DNA of 64,000 nucleotides from Myxococcales bacterium (GTDB lineage Bacteria; Myxococcota; UBA727; JABDBI01), in assembly GCA_023248545.1 (NCBI GenBank), contig JAHFEF010000002.1, positions 14,908 to 78,907 on the forward strand, in the 5' to 3' direction. Shown here piece after piece: positions 27,538 through 52,510 of the stretch. Positions within the stretch are counted from its first letter, which is position 1. Each line of letters opens with the position of its first letter. The position numbers and the translations under genes are program-made. Below the pieces are notes generated by a model. That model did not search any database. It saw nothing but the letters and a program-made list of their open reading frames with translations, and was not told the DNA's origin.

Positions 27538-27792
27538 ATGCAAAATATGAAATCCTGTCGCTGTCCACATCACTCAATGACCGCAATTTTTCTGGTTCTT
27601 CTGGCCCTTACGATCTTTCTAGGTAATGCCGGGGTGATCGCTGAACATACAGCCAGTATGATCTGGCCTGTATTCTTGGGGCTGATTGGTCTTCAAAAAG
27701 TCTTTGGGCGCCGTTGCAAGTGCTGCGCGGGTGAAGGCTGCCAATGTGGTTGCTGTACAGGCAGTGAATCTCAGTCTGGCAAATGCTGCTGA
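27538..27792 (+). CDS. Small membrane protein with Cys-rich C-terminus (possible metal-binding)
   Basis: 84 aa, two TM helices, then RRCKCCAGEGCQCGCCTGSESQSGKCC. Lies 4 nt after pssA. Confidence 0.45.
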   Translation: MQNMKSCRCPHHSMTAIFLVLLALTIFLGNAGVIAEHTASMIWPVFLGLIGLQKVFGRRCKCCAGEGCQCGCCTGSESQSGKCC

Positions 27793-28628
27793 TGTCTCAG
27801 TTTATTGCGTTTGAACGCAATAAATGGTCTCAGTGCATAGTACAGAAAAAATAAGCCATCTGGCAAAGCCAAAGCCTGAAAGTCTTGAAGTCTTGGGACA
27901 AAGAGGCTGAACAGGACTTTGGCTTTGTTTTTAAATTTTTTGCGCAGAGCTAATTTGTGCCACCAATCCGACCATCGCCAAACGTAGGAACCCGTACGAC
28001 CCGTCTTTATTTGTAGCCCTTCTCTTAATGTCCCAGCTAAATCCCACTGATCAGCTTCTTTCCTAATCAAATTCCAATCAAGCTCATATTTTGCTAATAA
28101 TTTTTGAATATCGAGTGCCCATTGGGGTCTCGACCAACCCGACTCACAGCCATGCGTGCATAAATAAAGCAAATTATATTCTGGGCTCAGATGTTTAATC
28201 TGAACACCTAAAAGCTCAGTGGTCTGCAAACTAATATCAAACACAGAAAAGCACTCCCAGTCTTGAAACAGGCGCCAGTGCAGCTCTAAACAAATTTGTT
28301 TTTTGGGGTGCCAATAAACAAAATCTTTGCTCCAGTGAATATGTGCTTGAAGTTGCCGAGGTGTTAAGAACGACCGTTGATAGCCTTGTTGTTGCAGAAT
28401 ATGATCGGCCTCGAAAATATTTTTAGGCTTTATGACCAGGTCAATATCTTTTGATTTCCGAGCACCCAAATCGCCATAGAGCTCGAGTGCTAACAGAGGA
28501 CCCTTAATAGCAACAGACTCTATTTTTGCGTGCGCCAACAGTGAAACTATAGAAACCAGTTCAGCGCATTGGCCTAGTGCCTGCTTAGGATTGAAGTAAC
28601 CCAATATCGCCGCCGCTGCTAATAGCAT
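27771..28628 (-). CDS. Pol-beta-superfamily nucleotidyltransferase of the 'uncharacterised nucleotidyltransferase' type that accompanies PqqD-family proteins
   Basis: 285 aa. IKGPLLALELYGDLGARKSKDIDLVIKPKN matches the hG[GS]...DhD NTase motif. The true start is uncertain: the annotated ATG lies 76 nt inside the upstream small ORF. Confidence 0.7.
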   Translation of the reverse strand: MLLAAAAILGYFNPKQALGQCAELVSIVSLLAHAKIESVAIKGPLLALELYGDLGARKSKDIDLVIKPKNIFEADHILQQQGYQRSFLTPRQLQAHIHWSKDFVYWHPKKQICLELHWRLFQDWECFSVFDISLQTTELLGVQIKHLSPEYNLLYLCTHGCESGWSRPQWALDIQKLLAKYELDWNLIRKEADQWDLAGTLREGLQIKTGRTGSYVWRWSDWWHKLALRKKFKNKAKVLFSLFVPRLQDFQALALPDGLFFLYYALRPFIAFKRNKLRHQQHLPD

Positions 28629-28704
28629 TTTCGGTGTCTAAATTGACATCGGCAATCTGAGTGATCTCAGGTTTTGTCCAGATCTTTTTCGCTTCCTCAG
28701 CCAT
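28585..28704 (-). CDS. Candidate RiPP-like precursor peptide, 39 aa, with a PqqA-like leader. It is not in the ORF track.
   Basis: Hand translation of the minus strand gives ATG(28704-28702) MAEEAKKIWTKPEITQIADVNLDTENAISSGGDIGLLQS then TAA(28587-28585). The ATG is 10 nt after the stop of the PqqD-family gene. Confidence 0.4.
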   Translation of the reverse strand: MAEEAKKIWTKPEITQIADVNLDTENAISSGGDIGLLQS

Positions 28705-28714
28705 GTCTGGCAGT

Positions 28715-29005
28715 CTAGCTCAGAGGCTGGACAACTTGCAACAAATTCTGAGTCAATAACTGATTCAGAAATTCTAAAACTTCCTGCTCACACTGTTTTT
28801 TCGAGACTTCGAACTCTCGTCCGAGCTTGTCGCATAGCTGAGTGATCTCTGTGGGTTGCTCCAGGAGCTCCCAAATTCTTCGACCAACCGAGTTGACACC
28901 GTAATACTTGCCAGTTTGTATGCTGAGCATGACCAAGTCTTCGTCTAAGCAGCTGCTGATCAGATTTTTATTTCTCGCCACGGTGTCATTGAGTTGAAGC
29001 TTCAT
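28715..29005 (-). CDS. PqqD-family protein (RiPP recognition element / peptide chaperone)
   Basis: 96 aa. LVMLSIQTGKYYGVNSVGRRIWELLEQPTEITQLCDKL...EVLEFLNQLLTQNLL matches the PqqD winged-helix consensus (yy.LN..g..IW.ll.g..t..ei...l). Confidence 0.8.
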   Translation of the reverse strand: MKLQLNDTVARNKNLISSCLDEDLVMLSIQTGKYYGVNSVGRRIWELLEQPTEITQLCDKLGREFEVSKKQCEQEVLEFLNQLLTQNLLQVVQPLS

Positions 29006-29012
29006 GGTTTAT

Positions 29013-30827
29013 TTATAGGCGGCAAACCCGTTTTAAGCGACAGTCTGAACAAGAAGTTTGAATATCGGCCGGTACATGGCCCTGTAACACCGGTTCTAAC
29101 AAAGCTTGCAACGCTTGATCTAACTCGGGCAAGCGATCGGTCATGTCGATCAAGGGTCCTGGGGCGCCGTCTCGAATAGATATGGGGTAGCCAAGAAGTT
29201 GTTTGTGTGACCCTAACGCTCTCAAATAAATAGGTATCTGAAAATGCGTTTTCAAGATTTCTTTCGAAGCAAAGCGCATTCGAAGAGCACTCAAGGCGGA
29301 TAATTTATAATCAACGACGATTTGAGCCTCTGGGTTTGTATCAACTCGATCGATCACGCCGCCAATGTGAATTTTGTCCGTGCCGACCAAAAGCTCAAAC
29401 GACTCTGGTCGGTGTTCAAAAAATACGGGCTTAGCGTTCGCAATGGGCGGATTTTTTTCCAAATTAGATACCAGTCGCCGAAGCGCTTCACGAAGCCAAA
29501 GCAGATTGGCTCGCCATACACCTGGATGCGTGTCTTTGGGATCTGCCTGTGCAAGCGTGAGCTGAATCTCTTGGCCATCACGATAATATTTTTCGAGTGC
29601 CTCGTGTGCCACCTGACCCAGGACACGCATATCGATGTCGTGTCTTGCCGGGGGACTCAGATCGATTTTCAACAGCTTTTCAACAAATGCCCGAAAGCGA
29701 CACTGCGCAAAAGCTTCTATTCGGGTGGCGCTCAGTGGCTTTTCCGGATTTAAACCCAATAGATCGCCAAATTGTTTTCGAAAACGAATGGGATCCAACC
29801 TCACCCCTAACCCCTCTCCACCCAGTGGAGAGGGGAATTTTTGGGAACGTTTAGCAGCCTGAAAAACTTGCTCCAGCTTATTAAGCGGTCTGTTTAACTG
29901 AGTAATTCCCTCGTTTTCGCTGAGCCAATCAAGTTTCGCTAATTCGCTCATGGTCTGCGCCTGACCACTTTGATCCAACGCCGAGCTGGTCAAAACTAAA
30001 AACTTGGCCGCGCTACAAGCCCCCAAAAACCACATGGGCTCAAGTGCTTGCTTGGCTGGGAACAAACTGGGTTCTAGCAGGTCTTCTTCGAAGCGCCGTA
30101 AAACTTGATGACCCATGAGACAATTAATCTCAAAGCAGTCAGAATCTCGCAGTGGCCAATCTGGTTCGCGTGAAAGTGTCAGACGCCCATGTGCACAGTC
30201 GGCAATCACCACCCCATCCAATTGCTTGCCCAGCAAATCGGGTAGCGCCAAAACTGGCGTGTCCAACTCATGTGCACGCAGGGCATCTCGAAATATCAAT
30301 GCTCTTTTATCCAGCACACGCATTGCGACGGCAATATTTTTATCCCGACCGTAGCCAGCCACAACTTGGGCCACAAAACGTGCTTCTTGCACCAAGTCCG
30401 GCGCTTCATAACGCACCAGGCGCTCTGGTTTTACGAACGGCTTAAAGATAATTTCCAAGTTTTTTAAGTCATGATGCTGTTCGATTCGATGGGCCAAATA
30501 GGTAATGGGCAAACTCAATCCGTGGCCTGATGAATCTACTGGAAACTCAAAACGAATTTTGACACCCAACTCCGCCAGTCTAAACAAATAGGCCAGTTCG
30601 AGTTCGCTCAAATCTACCCGATTTGAAATCACCAGGTGATCAAAGTCAGGCTTTTGGGTGAGTGCCTGATAGGATCGTAAAAAATCTAAACTTTGATCCG
30701 GCTGGTGCTCAAGCGCTTGGAGCGGGGTTAGAATTTCACGCAAACGGGGCGAAAGCCCCGGCTTGGCCAATATTTCGCTCGGAGAACTTAAGCCATGAAT
30801 CAGCGCCCGAAAGAGTTTTAGCGTCAC
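29013..30827 (-). CDS. PD-(D/E)XK nuclease-family protein with an AddB/Cas4-type iron-sulfur nuclease domain and no helicase motifs
   Basis: 604 aa. The C-terminal ~230 aa carry SATRIEAFAQCRFRAFVEKLL (compare SxSxLExxxxCPxxyF), GGVIDRVD, IVVDYKLS (E/DxK) and a terminal CSDCRLKRVC (C-x2-C-x5-C). This is the 4-Cys 'iron staple' of AddB-type nucleases. The stop is 7 nt before the pqqD-like ATG. Confidence 0.65.
   Translation of the reverse strand: MTLKLFRALIHGLSSPSEILAKPGLSPRLREILTPLQALEHQPDQSLDFLRSYQALTQKPDFDHLVISNRVDLSELELAYLFRLAELGVKIRFEFPVDSSGHGLSLPITYLAHRIEQHHDLKNLEIIFKPFVKPERLVRYEAPDLVQEARFVAQVVAGYGRDKNIAVAMRVLDKRALIFRDALRAHELDTPVLALPDLLGKQLDGVVIADCAHGRLTLSREPDWPLRDSDCFEINCLMGHQVLRRFEEDLLEPSLFPAKQALEPMWFLGACSAAKFLVLTSSALDQSGQAQTMSELAKLDWLSENEGITQLNRPLNKLEQVFQAAKRSQKFPSPLGGEGLGVRLDPIRFRKQFGDLLGLNPEKPLSATRIEAFAQCRFRAFVEKLLKIDLSPPARHDIDMRVLGQVAHEALEKYYRDGQEIQLTLAQADPKDTHPGVWRANLLWLREALRRLVSNLEKNPPIANAKPVFFEHRPESFELLVGTDKIHIGGVIDRVDTNPEAQIVVDYKLSALSALRMRFASKEILKTHFQIPIYLRALGSHKQLLGYPISIRDGAPGPLIDMTDRLPELDQALQALLEPVLQGHVPADIQTSCSDCRLKRVCRL
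29797..29836 (-). repeat. Palindromic element, copy A (about 40 bp; 10-11 bp stem CCCCTCTCCAC/GTGGAGAGGGG), inserted in-frame in the nuclease-like CDS
   Basis: Plus strand: aacctcacccctaacccctctccacccagtggagagggga. Its reverse complement is ~85-90% identical to copy B at 51482-51520. In the nuclease-like protein it encodes FPSPLGGEGLGVRLD. Confidence 0.6.
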
Positions 30828-31558
30828 TTCTTCTTTTTCTTAAGCTGTTCTCTGGCCTTGAGAGCAAAAGAACTCTTGGGATGCTTTTTGATAACTTCTT
30901 CGTAAAAAACCGAAGCATCTTTTGGAAATTTAAGTGCTTCTAAAGATACGCCGACTTTATAGAGTGCCTCTGGGACCTTACTGAAACCCTGAAAACGTGT
31001 CAGCAAGTCTTGGTAGGATAGGACGGCTTTTTTATACTCGCCGAGCTCATAATAAGAATCCCCACGCCAAAATAATATTTGAGCCGTGAATTGCTTGTCA
31101 TCTGCAAACTTGCTTAAAAACGTTTCGCTGCCAGCAATTGCGCGCTCATATTGCTTGTCTTCATAGGCTGTCTTGATCGCAGCAACTTGATCCGTCTTGT
31201 TGAGATTTTTGGGCGCCGCAGCAGGTTCTTCGGTAGCGGGCGCTGGGACAGGTTCTACAGGCTTCGCGGTTTGAATTTCTTGGAGCTGGGTTTTGAGCTG
31301 CTCGACTTCGGTGAGAAGCTTCTCTTTTTCGAGGTTCGTATCAGCACTCTGTTTAAATACAGCGCCTTCTAGTTTTTGGAGGCGGTTCTCGGACAACAAT
31401 TGCCGATCACCCACGTCGCGTTGGGTATCAGCAAGCTGTGATCTGAGCTTGCTGATATCCATTTGCATTTGATCGCCCTCGGCGCGGGGCACAAAGCAGG
31501 CAGTGAGGCTACTCGATAGTAATATCAGTACGCCTGTTTTTAGCCCAAGCTTGTTCAT
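30824..31558 (-). CDS. ybgF: Tol-Pal system protein YbgF/CpoB (coiled coil + TPR lipoprotein)
   Basis: Start placed at MNKLGLKTGVLILLSSSLTAC (lipobox). The ORF-track start at 31669 would overlap pal by 160 nt. Long coiled coil followed by TPR-like C-terminus (YYELGEYKKAVLSYQDLL). Its stop overlaps the start of the nuclease-like gene (ATGA). Confidence 0.65.
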   Translation of the reverse strand: MNKLGLKTGVLILLSSSLTACFVPRAEGDQMQMDISKLRSQLADTQRDVGDRQLLSENRLQKLEGAVFKQSADTNLEKEKLLTEVEQLKTQLQEIQTAKPVEPVPAPATEEPAAAPKNLNKTDQVAAIKTAYEDKQYERAIAGSETFLSKFADDKQFTAQILFWRGDSYYELGEYKKAVLSYQDLLTRFQGFSKVPEALYKVGVSLEALKFPKDASVFYEEVIKKHPKSSFALKAREQLKKKKK

Positions 31559-32084
31559 TGTGTTCAGGGTCAACGGGTTTTTCTTTTCCATAAGAGACAA
31601 CATGCATCCTAGAATCACTAATTCCAGAGTTTTGCAAGTATTGTGACACAGCCTTGGCTCGTTTTTCACCTAAAGCCAGATTATATTCTACCGTTCCGCG
31701 TTCATCCGTGTTGCCGGCAACCATAATTTGGGTGTTCGCATTGGTACGCAAGCAGGCAGCCATATCCGTCAGCAAGTCTCGATCGCCCGCTTTGATATCA
31801 TACATATTGAAATCAAAATGGACAGTTCCAGTTTGGCTACAGGCTGAACCAGCTTGAACTGGTGTTGACTTCTCTGTTTGCGAAGCCTGAGAGCTTTCAG
31901 CACAACGATTATCTGTGCAGATTTTGCCCTCCTTACAGTCTTTGTTGGTGCCGCACTCCTGGCACTTGCCAAATACGCAAACAGCGTCTTCGCAATCACC
32001 ATCTTTTTTGCATGTCACGTCTTTTGAAGAGTGACACGCAGTTAATAACATGAGGGTTACCACCCCAATTGATCCGATTTTCAT
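31509..32084 (-). CDS. pal: Peptidoglycan-associated lipoprotein Pal (OmpA-like) with a Cys-rich N-terminal module
   Basis: 191 aa. Lipobox LLTAC; OmpA-like C-domain (VHFDFNMYDI...IMVAGNTDERGT.EYNLALGEKRAKAV...NRR). Eleven Cys sit between the lipobox and the OmpA domain. Confidence 0.8.
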   Translation of the reverse strand: MKIGSIGVVTLMLLTACHSSKDVTCKKDGDCEDAVCVFGKCQECGTNKDCKEGKICTDNRCAESSQASQTEKSTPVQAGSACSQTGTVHFDFNMYDIKAGDRDLLTDMAACLRTNANTQIMVAGNTDERGTVEYNLALGEKRAKAVSQYLQNSGISDSRMHVVSYGKEKPVDPEHNEQAWAKNRRTDITIE

Positions 32085-45754: not shown

Positions 45755-46504
45755 ATGGCCCACTGGAAAAAAAGACTGTACGAAATCGTATTTGAGTCCG
45801 ATACGCCCGCAGGTAGAGCATTTGATATTATCTTGCTTTGGGCTGTTATTATCAGCGTGACGGCGGTGTGCTTAGAAAGCGTTTCTGGAATTAAAGAGCA
45901 ATATGGTACTGTATTGCGAGGCCTGGAATGGTTGTTCACGCTGGCATTTACGCTGGAATATTGCGTTCGGTTGGTCAGCGCAAAAAATCGGCTCAGTTAT
46001 GCATTCAGTTTCTATGGATTGGTTGACTTGATTGCGACATTGCCGACGTATTTCAGCATTCTGTTTCCGGGAGCTCAATCTTTCTTGGTTATTCGAGTTT
46101 TGAGGCTGCTTCGAGTATTTAGAATCTTAAAGCTCGGCAATTATATGGTCGAAGCGAATTATCTGGGTATGGCTCTTGTTGCGAGCAAGCGTAAGATTGG
46201 CGTATTTTTGCTCAGTGTCATGACGATTATATTGGTGGCCGGGACGCTCATGTATTTAATCGAAGGACCTGAAAACGGTTTTACCAGTATCCCTCGTGGA
46301 ATTTATTGGGCCATCGTGACCATTACGACAGTGGGTTATGGGGATATTTCGCCCCATACGGTATTTGGACAAATTCTGGCGTCCTGCTTGATGTTGGTGG
46401 GTTACACGATCATTGCTGTACCGACGGGGATTGTCTCAGCTGAAATGATGAACAATGGCAATCATGATACGCGGTTTTGTAAAAATTGTGGGTCAAGAGT
46501 TTGA
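45755..46504 (+). CDS. Voltage-gated potassium channel (6TM, KvAP-like)
   Basis: 249 aa. S4 helix with Arg every third residue (RVLRLLRVFRILKLG). Selectivity filter TTVGYGD. Confidence 0.8.
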   Translation: MAHWKKRLYEIVFESDTPAGRAFDIILLWAVIISVTAVCLESVSGIKEQYGTVLRGLEWLFTLAFTLEYCVRLVSAKNRLSYAFSFYGLVDLIATLPTYFSILFPGAQSFLVIRVLRLLRVFRILKLGNYMVEANYLGMALVASKRKIGVFLLSVMTIILVAGTLMYLIEGPENGFTSIPRGIYWAIVTITTVGYGDISPHTVFGQILASCLMLVGYTIIAVPTGIVSAEMMNNGNHDTRFCKNCGSRV

Positions 46505-46559
46505 GCTGAGTAGGCCCCTTGCAACCTGAAAATAATTATTCTATCTGGAGGGAACGCTT

Positions 46560-47654
46560 ATGAGATGTATAAATCTGTTTTCTATTTTAGCTTGTATGAT
46601 TGGTTTCGCCACATTTTCAACGGGAGCATCAGCTACGGTTGAGGTGGAAGGTTTTATCGAAGGTACATTGGTAAAGACACCAGAGGGCTATTCAAAGATT
46701 GAGACCCTGTTAGTTGGTGATCTTGTTATGAGTTGTGATTTTGAAGGAAGTTGTGTAGAGCGTCAGGTTCTTAAGACCTCTAAGAAAGAAGCATCTAGGT
46801 ATCTCGAAATTGAAGTAGATGGCCAAAAAATTGGTGTTGGCTATAGCCACAAGCTTTTTTCCTGTGATACTGATTTCTGGACAAATGCCACAAACATCAA
46901 GAATTCGTCGTCCCTAATGAATGCTCTACACAGGAATGTTTCTGTAAGTAACGTCGGTGTGATTCGTGAAACAGTGACTCTTTATAATCTTTCTATTGAG
47001 CAGTTCCAAAACTATTTTGTCAGCATGGCTGATGTATTGGTTCATAACTATGCTGCTCAAGAGCTTGATGCGATGTTGGATGCAATGTCTCCTAGAGATA
47101 GGGCGCAGATTCTTATCATGGAATCCGCGAAAAGATATGGTCTCCACAGCCCCCCACAGCTTTCCTATATCTTGGCGACAGCAGAACATGAAACCATGAA
47201 CTTCAAAACCATGAAGGAAATAGGTGGTTCGAAGATGCCATATGCCCCATATTATGGGCGAGGTTATGTGCAGCTCACTCATAAATTCAATTATGAAAAA
47301 TTCTCAAAGCTATTCGGAGAGGATATTGTAAGCAATCCAGACCGTGCGATGGACCCGAGATATGCGTCTGATGTCATTGTTTTTGGAATGATGATGGGGG
47401 TTTTTACCGGAGAATTAAAAAAGGATGGTAAAAACTGGAGTGGGAAAAAGCTTATCGATTATATCGTTGGAAATGGTGATGGAACAGGCAAGGCTGATTT
47501 TGTTAATGCACGCAGGATTATTAACAGTCTAGACAGGGCTGAGCATATTGCCGGGCTTGCCAAGAAATGGCTGCAATATTTCAAGAATACGAGAGGCACT
47601 CCAAATGGGGACATCAAATTTTTGCAATGGATGCCTTGGCATAACGAGTTGTAG
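46560..47654 (+). CDS. Secreted Hint-domain protein fused to a glycoside-hydrolase-family-19 (lysozyme/chitinase-like) domain; candidate polymorphic-toxin-type peptidoglycan hydrolase
   Basis: Signal peptide MRCINLFSILACMIGFATFSTGASA. The Hint N-block GFIEGTLVKTPEGYSKIETLLVGDLV resembles the intein A block but lacks Cys1. The C-block ends LVHN-Y. The C-terminal domain has GH19 signatures: ATAEHET and YYGRGYVQLTHKFNY (compare YYGRGPIQLSWNYNY). SD ggaggg. Confidence 0.6.
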   Translation: MRCINLFSILACMIGFATFSTGASATVEVEGFIEGTLVKTPEGYSKIETLLVGDLVMSCDFEGSCVERQVLKTSKKEASRYLEIEVDGQKIGVGYSHKLFSCDTDFWTNATNIKNSSSLMNALHRNVSVSNVGVIRETVTLYNLSIEQFQNYFVSMADVLVHNYAAQELDAMLDAMSPRDRAQILIMESAKRYGLHSPPQLSYILATAEHETMNFKTMKEIGGSKMPYAPYYGRGYVQLTHKFNYEKFSKLFGEDIVSNPDRAMDPRYASDVIVFGMMMGVFTGELKKDGKNWSGKKLIDYIVGNGDGTGKADFVNARRIINSLDRAEHIAGLAKKWLQYFKNTRGTPNGDIKFLQWMPWHNEL

Positions 47655-47655
47655 T

Positions 47656-48318
47656 ATGTTTCAAATAAGGTTACTGAGGGGTATAGGTTTCGTGGCCTTA
47701 CTATCGGGGCAACTTTTGGCTGGAAAGATTGAAAATAATATTGGCCGTGATTTCCGCGGATTTTCCGTTTTTGAAAAGGTAGCTGGGGATTTGAATGGTG
47801 ATGGGGTTGTTGATTACGTTGCAACTCTTTGGAAGAACCATCTTCGCACGGCTCCTGTGGTTGTCTACTTTGGAAATGGAAAAGGGGATTTTATTCTTCA
47901 GACAAAGGCCCCTGTCGCTAATTGTTTTTGGTGTGGCGGGATGAAAGGTACTCCTAATGAGCCAATAGGCAGGTTGAGTATCAATAATAAGGGCATTTTA
48001 GTAATGACGTTTAAGGGTGGCTCAAGAGAAGTCTGGACAGATGTGCTCAAATGGCGGTTTGATAAAAAACAAAAAGAGTTTTTCCTCATAGGAGAGACCT
48101 ATACGAGCGTCGATAATTTTGGGGAAGAACCAACGGAGCGGACTGATATCAACTATTCAACTGGAAAAATGGAAAAAAATATTGGTAAAAAAGGAAAGAT
48201 TTGTCAATTTTCATTACCTCTAAAAATGATATTGAGAACATTTGACTTTGAAAACCAGCATGTGGGTGATCTGTTTTTACTCACAAAAAAATGCCTGGTT
48301 GATATTCCTACACGTTAA
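47656..48318 (+). CDS. Secreted hypothetical protein; candidate immunity partner
   Basis: Start re-placed at MFQIRLLRGIGFVALLSGQLLAG (signal peptide), 2 nt after the upstream stop. The ORF-track start at 47548 would overlap the upstream gene by 107 nt. Contains a DLNGDGVVDY FG-GAP-like motif. Same AT-rich composition as the upstream gene. Confidence 0.45.
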   Translation: MFQIRLLRGIGFVALLSGQLLAGKIENNIGRDFRGFSVFEKVAGDLNGDGVVDYVATLWKNHLRTAPVVVYFGNGKGDFILQTKAPVANCFWCGGMKGTPNEPIGRLSINNKGILVMTFKGGSREVWTDVLKWRFDKKQKEFFLIGETYTSVDNFGEEPTERTDINYSTGKMEKNIGKKGKICQFSLPLKMILRTFDFENQHVGDLFLLTKKCLVDIPTR

Positions 48319-48405
48319 CCAAATTCCGTCGATTCTCTTTTCGTAATGTGCTAGCTTGCGCGTCATGATTATTCATGCGAGGCGTATTTACTCGGGAGCC
48401 GGTTC

Positions 48406-51102
48406 ATGAAAAAGACGCTTTTTCTTATTCTTTTAACACTAGGTGGTTTCAGCATGGCACAGACCCTTAAGCCGATTCGGCAAACCGAAGGCATCAGCGA
48501 ATATCAAGAGCCCAACGGCTTGTCGGTTTTGCTGTTCCCAGACCCTTCGCAATCAACGGTGACGGTGAATATTACTTATAAAGTGGGGTCCAGACACGAG
48601 GGCCGAGGTGAAACTGGGATGGCGCACCTGCTCGAGCACATGTTGTTTAAAGGCACTCCCAAGTTCCCCGATGCCAAAGGTATTCTGCAAGACAAGGGCG
48701 CATTTTTTAATGCAACCACGTGGTTTGACCGGACTAATTATTTTGAAACCATGCCGGCCAGCGATGAGAACCTCAAATTTGGCCTGCAATTTGAAGCGGA
48801 TCGCATGATCAACGCCTGGGTGCGCAAACAAGATCTAGATTCTGAAATGACGGTCGTACGAAACGAGTTTGAGATTGGCGAAAACGACCCGATCAATGTT
48901 TTGCATGATCAAATGCTTTCAGCGTCTTTTAGGTGGCATAATTATGGCAAGAGTACGATAGGCAATCGCAGTGACATCGAGCGCGTGCCGGTTGAAAACT
49001 TAAAAACTTTCTATCAAAAATATTATCAGCCAGACAATGCTGTTTTGATTATTGCTGGCAAATTTGACAGCACCAAAGCGTTGACATGGGTGAACGAGTA
49101 TTTTGGAAAAATTCCGAAGCCAACACGCGTTTTAGATAAAACTTACACGGAAGAACCAGCACAAGATGGCTCGCGTTTGGTGAAGCTCATGCGCACCGGT
49201 GAGGTGGCGGCTGCGGGCGTCTCTTATCATGTTCCAGCGGGTTCAAATTCAGACTTTGCAGCGATTAGAGTTTTAACTGAAGTGTTAGCGCAAGAACCCG
49301 GTGGTTACTTGTATGACCAACTGGTCAAGACCGGCAAAGCCTCAGAGATGTTTGGCATGGTGTACCAACTGGCTGAACCAGGGGCTTTGATGGTTTTTGC
49401 CAAGCCGGTGAAGCAAGACCAAGTCTATGTTCTGAAAGATGAGTTGATTGGCGATGTCGAAAATAAACAATCCGAAGCAATTAACCAAGAGGCGTTTGAC
49501 CGAGCAAAAGTCAGGTTGCTGAAGAATTATAAACTCGCAGCGGCTGACAGTAAAAAACTGGCTCTGGGTTTGAGTGAGTCTATCGCCCAGGGTGATTACA
49601 GACTTTATTTCTGGGGTCGTGACCAAGTTAAAAAAGTAACTCTGGACGATGTCAAACGTGTTGCAAAGAAATATTTGATCGAAAGCAATCGAACGGCTGG
49701 CGTGTTCGTGCCAACAGAAAAGCCAGTTCGGGCTGAGATCCCCAAGACACCCAATGTAGAAGCGATGCTCGAAAAGTACGTTGGAACTGAAGATTTGGCT
49801 CAAGGGGATAGCTTTGAAGCGACGCCAGAAAATATTGATAAGAGCACACAGCGTTTGACGCTCGACAATAACGTCAAAGCTGCTTTGCTGCCTAAGAAAA
49901 CCCGTGGCGATGTGGTGAAAGCGAGTTTTATCTTGCGCTACGGGACCGAACAGGCACTGACTGGCCACTTAGAAGCCTTGGCGCTTTTGCCGCAGTTGAT
50001 GATGCGTGGAACAGAGAAGAAAAATTTCCAGCAGATACAGGACCAATTGGATGCGCTCCAGTCAACTCTTAGAATGGGCGGTGCACCTGGTAAAACAGTG
50101 ATCGACGTGACCAGCGACAAAGATAATATTGTCAGAGTGATTGCACTGTTGGGCGAGATTCTCAAAACGCCTGCTTTGAGCGAAGCAGAGTTTGAGATCG
50201 TTCGCAAAAAAGAATTGGCCGAATTGGAAGAGTCGCTCTTAGATCCTAAGACGCTAGGCTTTAACGAGCTCGAGCGTCTCCAGAATCCTTGGCCTAAGAC
50301 GAGCATTCACTATGTGCCGACGATCGAAGAACGCATTGAGCATATCAAAGCGCTCAAACTGGCTGATATCAAAAAGCTATACCAAGAGTTCTATGGTGCC
50401 AATCACCTAGAGCTCGCTGTCGTGGGTTCTTTTGATGTCGAAGCTGTTAAAGCTGAGCTGAACAAGCATTTTGGTGCCTGGAAATCCGGCCAGCCATTTG
50501 CTCGAGTGACGAAGCCTTACAAGCCAGTGACGGCGGAAATGAAAGTACTTAAAACACCCGACAAGCAAATGGCGTTGTTGGCTTTGGGGACCAACCTGCC
50601 TGTTCAGGATACGACGGAAGATTATCCGGCTATGCGCATCGGAGCTTATGTGTTGGGTGAAGGTATGAAGTCTCGTATTTGGCATCGACTGCGGGAACAC
50701 GGTGGTCTTTCGTATGGGGCGGGTTCTTGGTTGGAGGCGAGCAAGCATGAACCCAATGCGACGCTTGGTATGTATGCGATGGCTGCTTCGGACAACGCCG
50801 ATAAAGCCTTAAAAGCGTTGCAGGAAGAATATAAAAAGTGGGCCCAGAAGGGAATTACAGATGACGAACTCAAAGAAAGTAAAATGAGTTTTAAGTCGAC
50901 GCTGGATAACTTGTTAGCAAATGACTCGTATGTTGTTTCGACGCTGAGTTCAAATCTTGAATTGGACCGAACGTTTGATTTTCAAGCCAAGCTACTCAAA
51001 AATATTGAGAAGCTGTCGGTTCAAGATGTTCAAGCGGCATTGAATCAGTATGTTGCTCCGGCGCAGTTGGCGGAAGTGAAAGCGGGAGATTTCAAAAACT
51101 GA
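48406..51102 (+). CDS. M16-family zinc peptidase (pitrilysin/insulinase-like; two M16 halves fused)
   Basis: 898 aa. Signal peptide; inverted zinc motif HLLEHMLFKGT (HxxEH). Confidence 0.85.
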   Translation: MKKTLFLILLTLGGFSMAQTLKPIRQTEGISEYQEPNGLSVLLFPDPSQSTVTVNITYKVGSRHEGRGETGMAHLLEHMLFKGTPKFPDAKGILQDKGAFFNATTWFDRTNYFETMPASDENLKFGLQFEADRMINAWVRKQDLDSEMTVVRNEFEIGENDPINVLHDQMLSASFRWHNYGKSTIGNRSDIERVPVENLKTFYQKYYQPDNAVLIIAGKFDSTKALTWVNEYFGKIPKPTRVLDKTYTEEPAQDGSRLVKLMRTGEVAAAGVSYHVPAGSNSDFAAIRVLTEVLAQEPGGYLYDQLVKTGKASEMFGMVYQLAEPGALMVFAKPVKQDQVYVLKDELIGDVENKQSEAINQEAFDRAKVRLLKNYKLAAADSKKLALGLSESIAQGDYRLYFWGRDQVKKVTLDDVKRVAKKYLIESNRTAGVFVPTEKPVRAEIPKTPNVEAMLEKYVGTEDLAQGDSFEATPENIDKSTQRLTLDNNVKAALLPKKTRGDVVKASFILRYGTEQALTGHLEALALLPQLMMRGTEKKNFQQIQDQLDALQSTLRMGGAPGKTVIDVTSDKDNIVRVIALLGEILKTPALSEAEFEIVRKKELAELEESLLDPKTLGFNELERLQNPWPKTSIHYVPTIEERIEHIKALKLADIKKLYQEFYGANHLELAVVGSFDVEAVKAELNKHFGAWKSGQPFARVTKPYKPVTAEMKVLKTPDKQMALLALGTNLPVQDTTEDYPAMRIGAYVLGEGMKSRIWHRLREHGGLSYGAGSWLEASKHEPNATLGMYAMAASDNADKALKALQEEYKKWAQKGITDDELKESKMSFKSTLDNLLANDSYVVSTLSSNLELDRTFDFQAKLLKNIEKLSVQDVQAALNQYVAPAQLAEVKAGDFKN

Positions 51103-51128
51103 AGACCTCGCTTAAGGCAGCGTTTGGA

Positions 51129-51725
51129 TTGATTCTCATCCTGGCGTTATTAAAACCGCTGGGTCATGATATCGCTTTTATCGTGGCTTTTGTGTATCAG
51201 CTGTATGTTCCATTATGGCTAGGCTACACAGTTCGATTACAACCGGATGCTTTGAAAGCGGATTTAATTCGAGTCGCCTGGATTTCTGTCGTGACGTTCT
51301 CTGGCTACGCTTTTGCTTATTATTGGTTTCAGCATTTTTGGGCGGCGCATCAGGGCTATCAAGTTTACTTTCATCCGGTGTTTTCTTGGAGTTTGCTTTG
51401 GGGCTTTGTGGTCAATCTGGCTATTATCGCCTTTCCTGAAGAAGTATTTTATCGAGGCTATCTCCAGAGCCGCCTTTTAAGTCCCTCTCCACAGGGTGGA
51501 GAGGGATTTAGGGTGAGGTTTGTGATTCTGTTTGTTAGCTTTCTCTTTGCCCTGGGCCACTTTGTGGGCGAGTACGACCCAGTTCGCCTGCTCCCCTTCT
51601 TTCCTGGTTTAGTTTTCTCGTGGCTTGTTTATCGCTCGGGCTCTATCGCAGGCGCGACACTTTATCATGCCCTTTGCAATAGTTTCTCGGAGTGGTTAGC
51701 GTCCAGTTATCACTGGAGCCACTGA
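51129..51725 (+). CDS. CPBP-family intramembrane metalloprotease (CAAX protease/Abi)
   Basis: 198 aa. EEVFYRGYL (motif 1), FALGH (motif 2), HALCN (motif 3). TTG start as called in the track. Contains the in-frame palindromic element (SPSPQGGEGFRVR). Confidence 0.7.
   Translation: MILILALLKPLGHDIAFIVAFVYQLYVPLWLGYTVRLQPDALKADLIRVAWISVVTFSGYAFAYYWFQHFWAAHQGYQVYFHPVFSWSLLWGFVVNLAIIAFPEEVFYRGYLQSRLLSPSPQGGEGFRVRFVILFVSFLFALGHFVGEYDPVRLLPFFPGLVFSWLVYRSGSIAGATLYHALCNSFSEWLASSYHWSH
51482..51520 (+). repeat. Palindromic element, copy B, inserted in-frame in the CPBP protease CDS
   Basis: tccctctccacagggtggagagggatttagggtgaggtt: stem CCCTCTCCAC/GTGGAGAGGG, 3 nt loop, then tail TTTAGGGTGAGGTT. Encodes SPSPQGGEGFRVR between CPBP motifs 1 and 2. 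Confidence 0.6.
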
Positions 51726-52510
51726 TGAAAAGTATTCGTATTCGAGATCTACAAGAAAAAAAAGCCAAGTCTGAGCCAATTACGATGCTGACTTGTTACG
51801 ACGCGATGTTCGCCAAAATATTAGATAGCTCGGGCGTCGATATTTTGTTGATTGGCGATACGCTGGGCATGGTGGTTCAAGGCCAAGAAACAACGTTGGG
51901 AGTCACACTCGAGGACATCGCGTATCATACGCGCATGGTGGCTCGGGGTGCCCAAAGAGCTCATATTGTCGCCGACATGCCGTTTATGACTTATCAGCAC
52001 GATATCAAAGAGGCGATGCAAAATGCTGCAAAGTTATTGGTGGCCGGTGCTCATTCGGTCAAACTCGAAGGGGGTACCCCTATGGCTTCGACGGTGAAAG
52101 CACTGACAGAAGTAGGTGTTCCCGTCATGGGTCATGTGGGTTTGACGCCGCAGAGTGTACATGCTTTGTCGGGTTATCGCACGCAGGGTAAAACCGACGA
52201 ATCGAGAAAGCGCATTCTTGAAGATGCGATGGCTCTCGAGGCTGCTGGTGCTTACGCAGTGGTTCTTGAGTGTGTTCCGGAGTCGCTCGCTCAGGAAATC
52301 ACACGAATGCTTCAGATACCGACAATTGGAATCGGCGCCGGGCCTGCGTGCGATGGCCAGGTTTTGGTAATTTATGATTTGCTGGGCTTTAATCCTGAAT
52401 TTAAACCAAAATATTTGAAGACCTATTTGAACGGCGCTGCGCTTATACAGCAAGCTTGTGAAAAATATGTGACAGAAGTGAGACAAAGGGTGTTTCCGCC
52501 CATGGAATAA
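51725..52510 (+). CDS. panB: 3-methyl-2-oxobutanoate hydroxymethyltransferase
   Basis: PITMLTCYDAMFA, DILLIGDTLGMV, HVGLTPQ. ATG at 51725 overlaps the upstream TGA by 1 nt. The ORF-track start at 51692 is an upstream alternative. Confidence 0.9.
   Translation: MKSIRIRDLQEKKAKSEPITMLTCYDAMFAKILDSSGVDILLIGDTLGMVVQGQETTLGVTLEDIAYHTRMVARGAQRAHIVADMPFMTYQHDIKEAMQNAAKLLVAGAHSVKLEGGTPMASTVKALTEVGVPVMGHVGLTPQSVHALSGYRTQGKTDESRKRILEDAMALEAAGAYAVVLECVPESLAQEITRMLQIPTIGIGAGPACDGQVLVIYDLLGFNPEFKPKYLKTYLNGAALIQQACEKYVTEVRQRVFPPME

Follow-up and report, generated by a model that had tools for sequence, protein, structure and literature searches.

Within a 64-kb stretch of DNA from a Myxococcales bacterium (contig JAHFEF010000002.1, positions 14,908 to 78,907; hereafter the window), a nuclease gene, a gene for a PqqD-like protein, a small open reading frame (ORF) and a gene for a nucleotidyltransferase (NTase) follow one another on the minus strand. 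The question raised by this locus is whether the four genes constitute a peptide-modification system that has not been described before, as proposed in the first-pass annotation of this DNA, or belong to a system of a known kind. Based on our analysis, we consider it probable (roughly 0.8) that the last three genes, designated here B1, A and N, represent an ordinary lasso-peptide cluster reduced by deletion of its B2 and C genes, that the nuclease is unrelated to them, and that no new system is present. All coordinates given without a locus are positions in the window; L-numbers denote relative loci and P-numbers protein homologues. The features concerned are as follows:

28715-29005, minus strand: PqqD-like ORF, B1, candidate leader-binding chaperone, 96 aa, complete PqqD domain
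28705-28741, minus strand: putative deletion junction, comprising the B1 stop codon, the ~8 codons before it, which are divergent, and a 10-nt spacer
28585-28704, minus strand: small ORF, A, candidate lasso precursor, 39 aa, MAEEAKKIWTKPEITQIADVNLDTENAISSGGDIGLLQS; predicted leader, codons 1-25 (28630-28704); predicted core, NAISSGGDIGLLQS (28588-28629)
27771-28628, minus strand: NTase ORF, N, 285 aa, short-form PF14907 (NTP_transf_5), Pol-beta fold
29013-30827, minus strand: PD-(D/E)XK/Fe-S nuclease, 604 aa, GTG start; a flank outside the system, conserved right after pal-ybgF in the lineage

The four ORFs are present exactly where they had been annotated, with the spacings and the position after pal-ybgF also as described. 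The nuclease stop codon is separated from the B1 start codon (ATG) by 7 nt and the B1 stop codon from the A start codon (ATG) by 10 nt, and A overlaps N by 44 nt. Directly upstream of the nuclease gene lie pal and ybgF (assigned with Pfam and NCBIfam), and the nuclease start overlaps the ybgF stop by 4 nt; the tight packing is therefore a property of the whole string from pal-ybgF to the NTase gene, not of the four genes only. The B1-A-NTase junction recurs in independent assemblies of different samples (L001, L002, L003 and L004), and hence is not a result of mis-assembly.

The 96-aa protein was compared with the relevant protein families. It matches the Pfam PqqD profile at positions 2-67 of 67 (E=3.6e-20), scores above the cutoff of the NCBIfam model NF033536 (lasso_PqqD_Bac; 92.6 bits versus 80) and below that of TIGR03859, the equivalog for PqqD of pyrroloquinoline quinone (PQQ) synthesis (24.5 bits versus 46). 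Its top sequence matches in the PDB are lasso B1 proteins, i.e. 9x90_B (E=1.7e-17), TbiB1 (5v1u; E=3e-13) and also TfuB1, and it shares 64-67% identity with its counterparts in L019 and L009, two intact clusters. On these matches we assign the protein as a lasso-peptide B1 chaperone, which is a recognition element (RRE) for peptides made on ribosomes and modified after translation (RiPPs). The earlier reading of this protein as an RRE was thus confirmed.

Orthologues of A that lie directly upstream of the NTase gene and overlap it were found in eight other loci (L007, L009, L010, L012, L014, L015, L016 and L019). A profile search with the precursor alignment gave four called peptides, all devoid of a source annotation, and P0062 is the tenth member of the family, found by profile search. 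The ratio of nonsynonymous to synonymous differences per site (pN/pS) of A is 0.30 for the stretch that overlaps no other gene (nine orthologues with DNA), with synonymous sites near saturation (pS 0.75-0.85). The conserved orthologues and this ratio argue that the small ORF is more than a chance reading frame, and we regard it as a real coding sequence under purifying selection, i.e. the genuine precursor that had been suspected. Twelve positions are invariant among nine aligned orthologues (M1, K6, W9, P12, E13, Q16, T24, E25, A27, G31, D33 and L37), and the C-terminal residue is Ser or Thr in every orthologue (Ser in the window).

The lasso leader motif YxxPxL has been placed at positions -17 to -12 (PMC10368454). 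When W9-x-x-P12-x-I14 of A is set at these positions, T24 falls at -2 and D33 at core position 8, which gives one consistent register. Thr at -2 is canonical in lasso precursors, and Asp at core position 8 corresponds to a legal ring size. A therefore has the leader motif, the Thr at -2 and the Asp/Glu at core position 7-9 by which a lasso precursor is recognized. The leader/core boundary, and with it the predicted cleavage site, was derived from the motif register, and the predicted core, of 14 aa, is very short. The resemblance to PqqA noted in the first-pass annotation was not borne out, as the sequence of A is devoid of Tyr and B1 stays below the TIGR03859 cutoff (see above).

The NTase matches Pfam NTP_transf_5 (PF14907) at profile positions 51-242 of 249 (E=5.9e-41) and carries the metal-binding motif G52-D-x7-D61-I-D63, of which the whole clade has conserved G52, D61 and D63. 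Truncation of N by decay was considered and ruled out, since nine homologues at 50-71% identity are all short (285-326 aa) and share their start point with the window protein; the absence of the first ~50 profile positions is therefore a feature of the clade. More distant PF14907 homologues have ~390-445 aa. A PDB sequence search with the N profile gave zero matches, and relatives were obtained by a fold search instead: the solved folds nearest to an AlphaFold (AF2) model built on the homologue alignment (mean per-residue confidence, pLDDT, 86.5) are LnuA, MenT1, ANT(2'')-Ia and FKRP. LnuA and ANT(2'')-Ia are small-molecule O-nucleotidylyltransferases, MenT1 is a toxin, and FKRP is a transferase that uses CDP-ribitol. 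The clade of N is rare in the genome and metagenome contig collections scanned, where its profile found one weak match and just two loci that were informative, of which one duplicates L007. We presume that N is the tailoring enzyme for the C-terminal Ser/Thr of A. The NTase does belong with the PqqD-like gene and the peptide, as had been claimed, and the earlier statement that lasso peptides are tailored at a C-terminal Ser proved correct (PMC6993621, PMC8498205, PMC10368454). The families suggested for the proteins were likewise recovered, profile searches with PqqD, NTP_transf_5 (PF14907) and PDDEXK_1 all giving matches.

What these three genes derive from is indicated by their relatives. 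L019, whose nuclease is 75% identical to that of the window, has the gene order pal-ybgF-nuclease-B1-B2-C-A-N, and the order in L007 is the same. L009 reads B1-B2-glycosyltransferase (TIGR04372)-247aa-C-A-N-Cys-rich-pssA, with the Cys-rich gene and pssA placed as in the window. All three relatives with enough upstream sequence thus hold the full B1-B2-C-A-N order at the same chromosomal site, and on each of five short contigs (L010, L012, L014, L015 and L016) the 3' end of the cyclase gene C is followed by A and N. C lies directly upstream of A in every relative with DNA there; among the loci compared, only in the window is the B1 stop directly followed by A. The B2 proteins of the relatives score above the NF033537 cutoff (L005, L007 and L009), and for C of L019, L009 and L007 the best NCBIfam match is the lasso cyclase model NF033535, above the asparagine-synthetase matches. 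Neither of these genes was detected in the 64-kb window by tblastn with three orthologues of the leader peptidase B2 or with two orthologues of the lasso cyclase C, those of L009 and L007 (best E 0.14); the same search with the glycosyltransferase and the 247-aa protein of L009 also gave no match. The window therefore lacks two defining features of a functional lasso cluster, B2 and C.

At the putative deletion junction, the relatives carry B2 and C (~2 kb in L019 and ~3.9 kb in L009). The homology in the B1 alignment ends after '...QNLL', and in a blastn comparison of the window with L019 the homology stops inside B1 and resumes at A (28689-28624, corresponding to L019 14103-14168), which would place the breakpoint roughly between ~codon 89 of B1 and the start codon of A. 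The nearest relatives of N, P0002/L014 (71%) and P0003/L009 (69%), retain C; the state of the window is therefore derived, and a deletion of B2-C in the window lineage is the parsimonious reading. Another locus, L005 (GCA_040384225.1, 9358-10981), carries B1-B2-N without C and without an A precursor ORF, and we interpret it as a second, independent reduction of the same cassette. With B2 and C missing, we class the window cassette (27771-29005) as a degenerate member of the known lasso kind; most likely it represents an intermediate stage in evolution, with the full cassette (L019, L009 and L007) on one side and complete loss (L017) on the other. Thus, of the undescribed peptide-modification system proposed earlier, the part that stands is that B1, A and N belong together; what they form is a lasso cluster without B2 and C, for which relatives at the same site have B1-B2-C-A-N. 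The four-gene unit as such is not conserved: no relative has the direct B1-A junction, and C is found upstream of A instead.

Two genes in L009 (739-2752) are additional, lying between B2 and C: the TIGR04372 glycosyltransferase (225 bits) and the 247-aa protein, for which no Pfam or NCBIfam match was found. Their presence points to a version of the same lasso peptide that is glycosylated. No kinase gene was found within 10 kb on either side on the contig of the window, nor in the cassettes of L007, L009 and L019.

As regards the nuclease, its residues 365-603 match PDDEXK_1 (E=2.6e-26), and it has a four-Cys pattern C...CxxCx5C at the C-terminus. The description of this protein as AddB-like holds for the PDDEXK_1 domain and the four-Cys pattern and fails for a full-length AddB: the score against the AddB equivalog TIGR02786 is 15.8 bits versus a cutoff of 486.5, only the C-terminal PDDEXK_1 domain matches, and no helicase gene that could encode the AddA helicase-nuclease is adjacent to it in the window. 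Sixteen homologues were found at E<=1e-10, and the gene lies behind pal-ybgF in every context examined (L001, L005, L007, L017, L019 and L020). In L017/L018, where the nuclease is closest to that of the window (79% identical), the next genes are immediately the Cys-rich gene and pssA, without B1, A or N, and the DNA homology between the window and L017 covers 31000-29020 and 27716-27404 only. In the more distant L020/L021 it is followed by unrelated Lcl_C genes, again without B1, A or N, and in L005 three unrelated genes, including one for an Lcl_C-domain protein, separate it from B1. The occurrence of the nuclease gene after ybgF without the cassette in L017/L018 and L020/L021 argues that it belongs to the core genome and lies outside the system, contrary to the earlier inclusion of it. 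On the gene orders compared, we therefore consider the nuclease a core-genome gene that ends the pal-ybgF operon, and the lasso cassette an accessory insert directly behind it; the location of the insert immediately downstream of the nuclease explains the tight spacing. The opposite side of the cassette is occupied by one more gene:

27538-27792, plus strand: Cys-rich membrane protein, 84 aa, a flank outside the system; convergent with N, with which it shares a 22-nt overlap at the 3' end of N

This protein has a Cys-rich tail (…CKCCAGEGCQCGCCTGSESQSGKCC) and weak LiaF-TM-like Pfam matches. Its orthologues (79-87 aa) are found beside pssA both with the cassette (L009 and L012) and without it (L017/L018). 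The gene stands at the opposite boundary of the variable site of the cassette, and the homology with L017 resumes at 27716.

According to established lasso biochemistry, in the intact relatives B1 would bind the W-x-x-P-x-[IV] leader motif, B2 would cut after Thr(-2)-Glu(-1), and C would link the new N-terminus to Asp8 to give an isopeptide ring. We propose, as a step of our own, that N modifies the conserved C-terminal Ser/Thr hydroxyl, to which a nucleotidyl or a nucleotide-activated group might be transferred. Since there is no kinase in any cassette, N either acts directly or its chemistry is unlike that of PsmN, an enzyme of this type discussed below. In the window, leader binding and modification by N could still take place; cleavage and ring formation would occur only if B2 and C were supplied in trans.

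Several observations weigh against the reading of the window cassette as a reduced lasso cluster. At conserved columns, N carries 8 private changes versus 6 private and 5 shared changes per sister lineage, and B1 has 2 private changes versus 3-5 in the sister lineages. Both proteins keep every family-invariant residue, and A keeps all 12 of its invariant positions. Relaxed selection in the window lineage was considered on these counts and was rejected, as the relative rates reveal no acceleration; this is a weak test. The lack of acceleration, together with the retained invariant residues, fits a recent deletion and continued function alike. The C proteins of the relatives reach only 218-333 bits versus the strict NF033535 cutoff of 525. 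The predicted core of A starts with Asn (His in L015) and not with the usual Gly, Ala, Ser or Cys, which makes the cleavage site uncertain. Finally, the negative result for B2 and C covers 64 kb, and a second cluster elsewhere in the genome may supply both. On the other hand, the dispensability of the cassette can be argued from its complete loss in close relatives, from the presence of N without a peptide gene in L005 and from the region preceding A, where a Shine-Dalgarno-like purine run (GGATGGA / GGATGGAG) occurs in L009 and L019 and is absent in the window.

The same observations bear on the possibility that the trio is still a working minimal RiPP module, in which B1 presents the uncleaved linear peptide and N modifies its C-terminal Ser, the product being used as is or finished by B2 and C encoded elsewhere. 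The three ORFs are intact with every invariant residue kept and no rate acceleration, the deletion is clean (10 nt remain between the stop of B1 and the start of A), N was kept in the window and in L005, two loci that were reduced independently, and BsfB1, a B1 protein of a characterized cluster, is documented to help not only the peptidase but also a tailoring kinase on the linear precursor (PMC10368454). Nevertheless, we regard such a module, including the further fate of its product, as unlikely. The B1-A-N arrangement occurs in no other locus, the 7 relatives with DNA upstream of A all carrying C there; the loss of the whole cassette in close relatives implies that it is dispensable; L005 has N but no peptide gene, therefore a peptide substrate does not follow from N being retained; and the purine run before A seen in L009 and L019 is missing. 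That selection kept B1-A-N as a self-sufficient minimal pathway after B2 and C were lost, with the RRE directing a transferase of the Pol-beta fold to a linear peptide that still bears its leader and whose C-terminal Ser would be nucleotidylated or receive a nucleotide-activated group, seems to us quite improbable. If true, it would represent a class of linear, non-lasso RiPPs with lasso ancestry, and PF14907, an uncharacterised family, would gain its first direct substrate assignment that is independent of a kinase.

N might also have a peptide-independent role, as a small-molecule or antibiotic O-nucleotidyltransferase or a MenT-like toxin, and be merely linked to the lasso genes. This would agree with its best fold matches (LnuA, ANT(2'')-Ia and MenT1) and with its persistence in L005 without C and A, but it is very unlikely given that, L005 excepted, all loci with upstream DNA have the start codon of N within the 3' end of the precursor gene, that N is missing from the loci without the cassette (L017/L018 and L020/L021), that published genetic work connects the homologous PsmN with modification of the C-terminal phospho-Ser of a lasso peptide, and that no antitoxin-like partner is present. 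We see hardly any room for the original idea of a translationally coupled four-gene system for peptide or protein nucleotidylation which includes the AddB-like nuclease and is possibly related to defence or the envelope. It draws on the 7-nt gap between the nuclease gene and B1 and on the direct adjacency of these two genes in L007, L009 and L019 too. However, the nuclease gene follows ybgF without B1, A and N in L017/L018 and L020/L021 and is three genes away from B1 in L005, while its 4-nt overlap with ybgF makes it equally 'coupled' to the Tol-Pal genes. Nor is a relation to defence supported by PADLOC, which gave no match for B1, A and the NTase and weak Cas4-like domain matches for the nuclease. 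B1, A and N are, moreover, fully explained as lasso components. Reduction of a lasso cluster by loss of B2 and C therefore remains the reading that we prefer.

Some further observations concern the surroundings of the cassette. A promoter and terminator consensus scan revealed no convincing internal promoter or terminator for it. That scan flagged as terminator-like a G+C-rich inverted repeat of 11 bp (CCCCTCTCCAC-CCA-GTGGAGAGGGG) at 29811-29835 on the plus strand, which is followed by a T-rich stretch and lies antisense inside the nuclease gene. An Rfam scan of 26-33 kb found nothing within the cassette; its sole match was a sub-threshold one to the CpoB/ybgF ICR thermometer RF02782 (31490-31611, minus strand; 26.5 bits versus a gathering score of 51, E=0.074), at the pal-ybgF junction, which is where that element is described. 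The mechanically derived ybgF ORF (30824-31669, minus strand) has 281 aa and a GTG start, and gene callers on identical contigs give 214 aa; the N-terminal ~67 codons are probably not translated. The region 46001-52000 has a lower G+C content (0.424 at 46-48 kb versus ~0.48 elsewhere) and a strongly positive GC skew (0.10-0.20), and may be a compositionally distinct segment. Near the corresponding locus in two relatives (L017 14201-15433 and L020 5778-21466), a TLC-family ATP/ADP translocase and many Lcl_C-domain proteins are encoded. Such translocases and Lcl_C-domain proteins often accompany host- or prey-dependent lifestyles.

The main value of the reduced lasso cluster lies in the correction that it brings. 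An accessory lasso cassette that is inserted behind a core nuclease gene and then partly deleted mimics a new system, and remnants of this kind are easily mistaken for new RiPP classes by genome-mining pipelines and manual readers. At the same time, the lasso cluster of this small clade of Myxococcota-type metagenome-assembled genomes (MAGs) is compact and devoid of a kinase, and its precursor gene overlaps both that of the cyclase and that of a short-form PF14907 transferase. With a precursor that always ends in Ser or Thr, it is a clean system for learning what PsmN-type enzymes do. The series that leads, at one chromosomal position, from the full cassette through the B1-A-N or B1-B2-N remnants to the empty site forms a tidy natural record of RiPP cluster decay.

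Two of the known systems were named in the first-pass annotation. PQQ synthesis and the HPr-rel-A systems share with the window a PqqD/RRE fold that binds a peptide leader. The PQQ pathway differs in that TIGR03859 is not reached, the Glu/Tyr pair from which PQQ is built is absent from A (which has no Tyr), and no pqqB, pqqC or pqqE genes are present. The supposed link to HPr-rel-A was not upheld either: the window locus has no HPr-kinase-like gene and no HPr-rel-A model match, none of TIGR04352-04355 being among the matches at E<=0.01 for the four proteins.

A closer counterpart is the bsf cluster of Bradymonas sediminis FA350, which consists of bsfA, B1, B2, C, D, K and N, and in which BsfB1 speeds the tailoring reaction on the linear precursor, besides assisting the peptidase (PMC10368454). 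The two have in common the split B1/B2 proteins, a predicted nucleotidyltransferase gene in the cluster (bsfN), a leader motif of the YxxPxL type (-17 to -12) and a 'deltaproteobacterial'/Myxococcota-type host, the MAG relatives of the window being labelled Myxococcota, Myxococcaceae or Deltaproteobacteria. N of the window is likened to BsfN by description, not by sequence alignment. Unlike bsf, the window is without B2, C, D and the kinase K, and its intact relatives are without K and D; A has Thr at -2 where bsf has Ile, and the modified residue is Ser3 in bsf, whereas in A the candidate is the conserved C-terminal hydroxyl residue.

The other point of comparison is the psm cluster for pseudomycoidin in Bacillus pseudomycoides, which includes PsmN, together with the paeninodin pade cluster related to it (PMC6993621, PMC8498205, PMC9266682). 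PsmN, an 'uncharacterised nucleotidyltransferase', is needed for pseudomycoidin to receive a hexose at its C-terminal Ser, which is phosphorylated, and mutation of the DxD site leaves PsmN inactive (PMC6993621, PMC8498205, PMC9266682). We place PsmN in PF14907 on the published description of the family, not on an alignment. The window shares with psm a precursor that ends in Ser and a B1 of the 'Bacillus-type' lasso PqqD family (NF033536). The nearest structural relatives of PsmN, ANT(2'')-Ia (5cfs, 4xje), are the same matches as those of N, and the DxD metal site required in PsmN has its equivalent in D61/D63 of N. N thus has the PF14907 domain with the Pol-beta G...DxD metal site that characterizes the PsmN/BsfN type and lacks the partner HPr-type kinase of that type, L009 carrying the TIGR04372 glycosyltransferase instead. 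PsmN acts on a Ser that has been phosphorylated beforehand by the HPr-type kinase PsmK, whereas there is no kinase in the window or in the cassettes of its relatives; furthermore, N is a short form (285-326 aa clade), the core of 14 aa is much shorter, and the window has no cyclase. Taken as a clade, the window, which departs further in being without B2 and C, and its relatives are distinguished from both bsf and psm by a cassette free of kinase and transporter genes, a short-form N, a 14-aa core and a precursor gene that overlaps both C and N.

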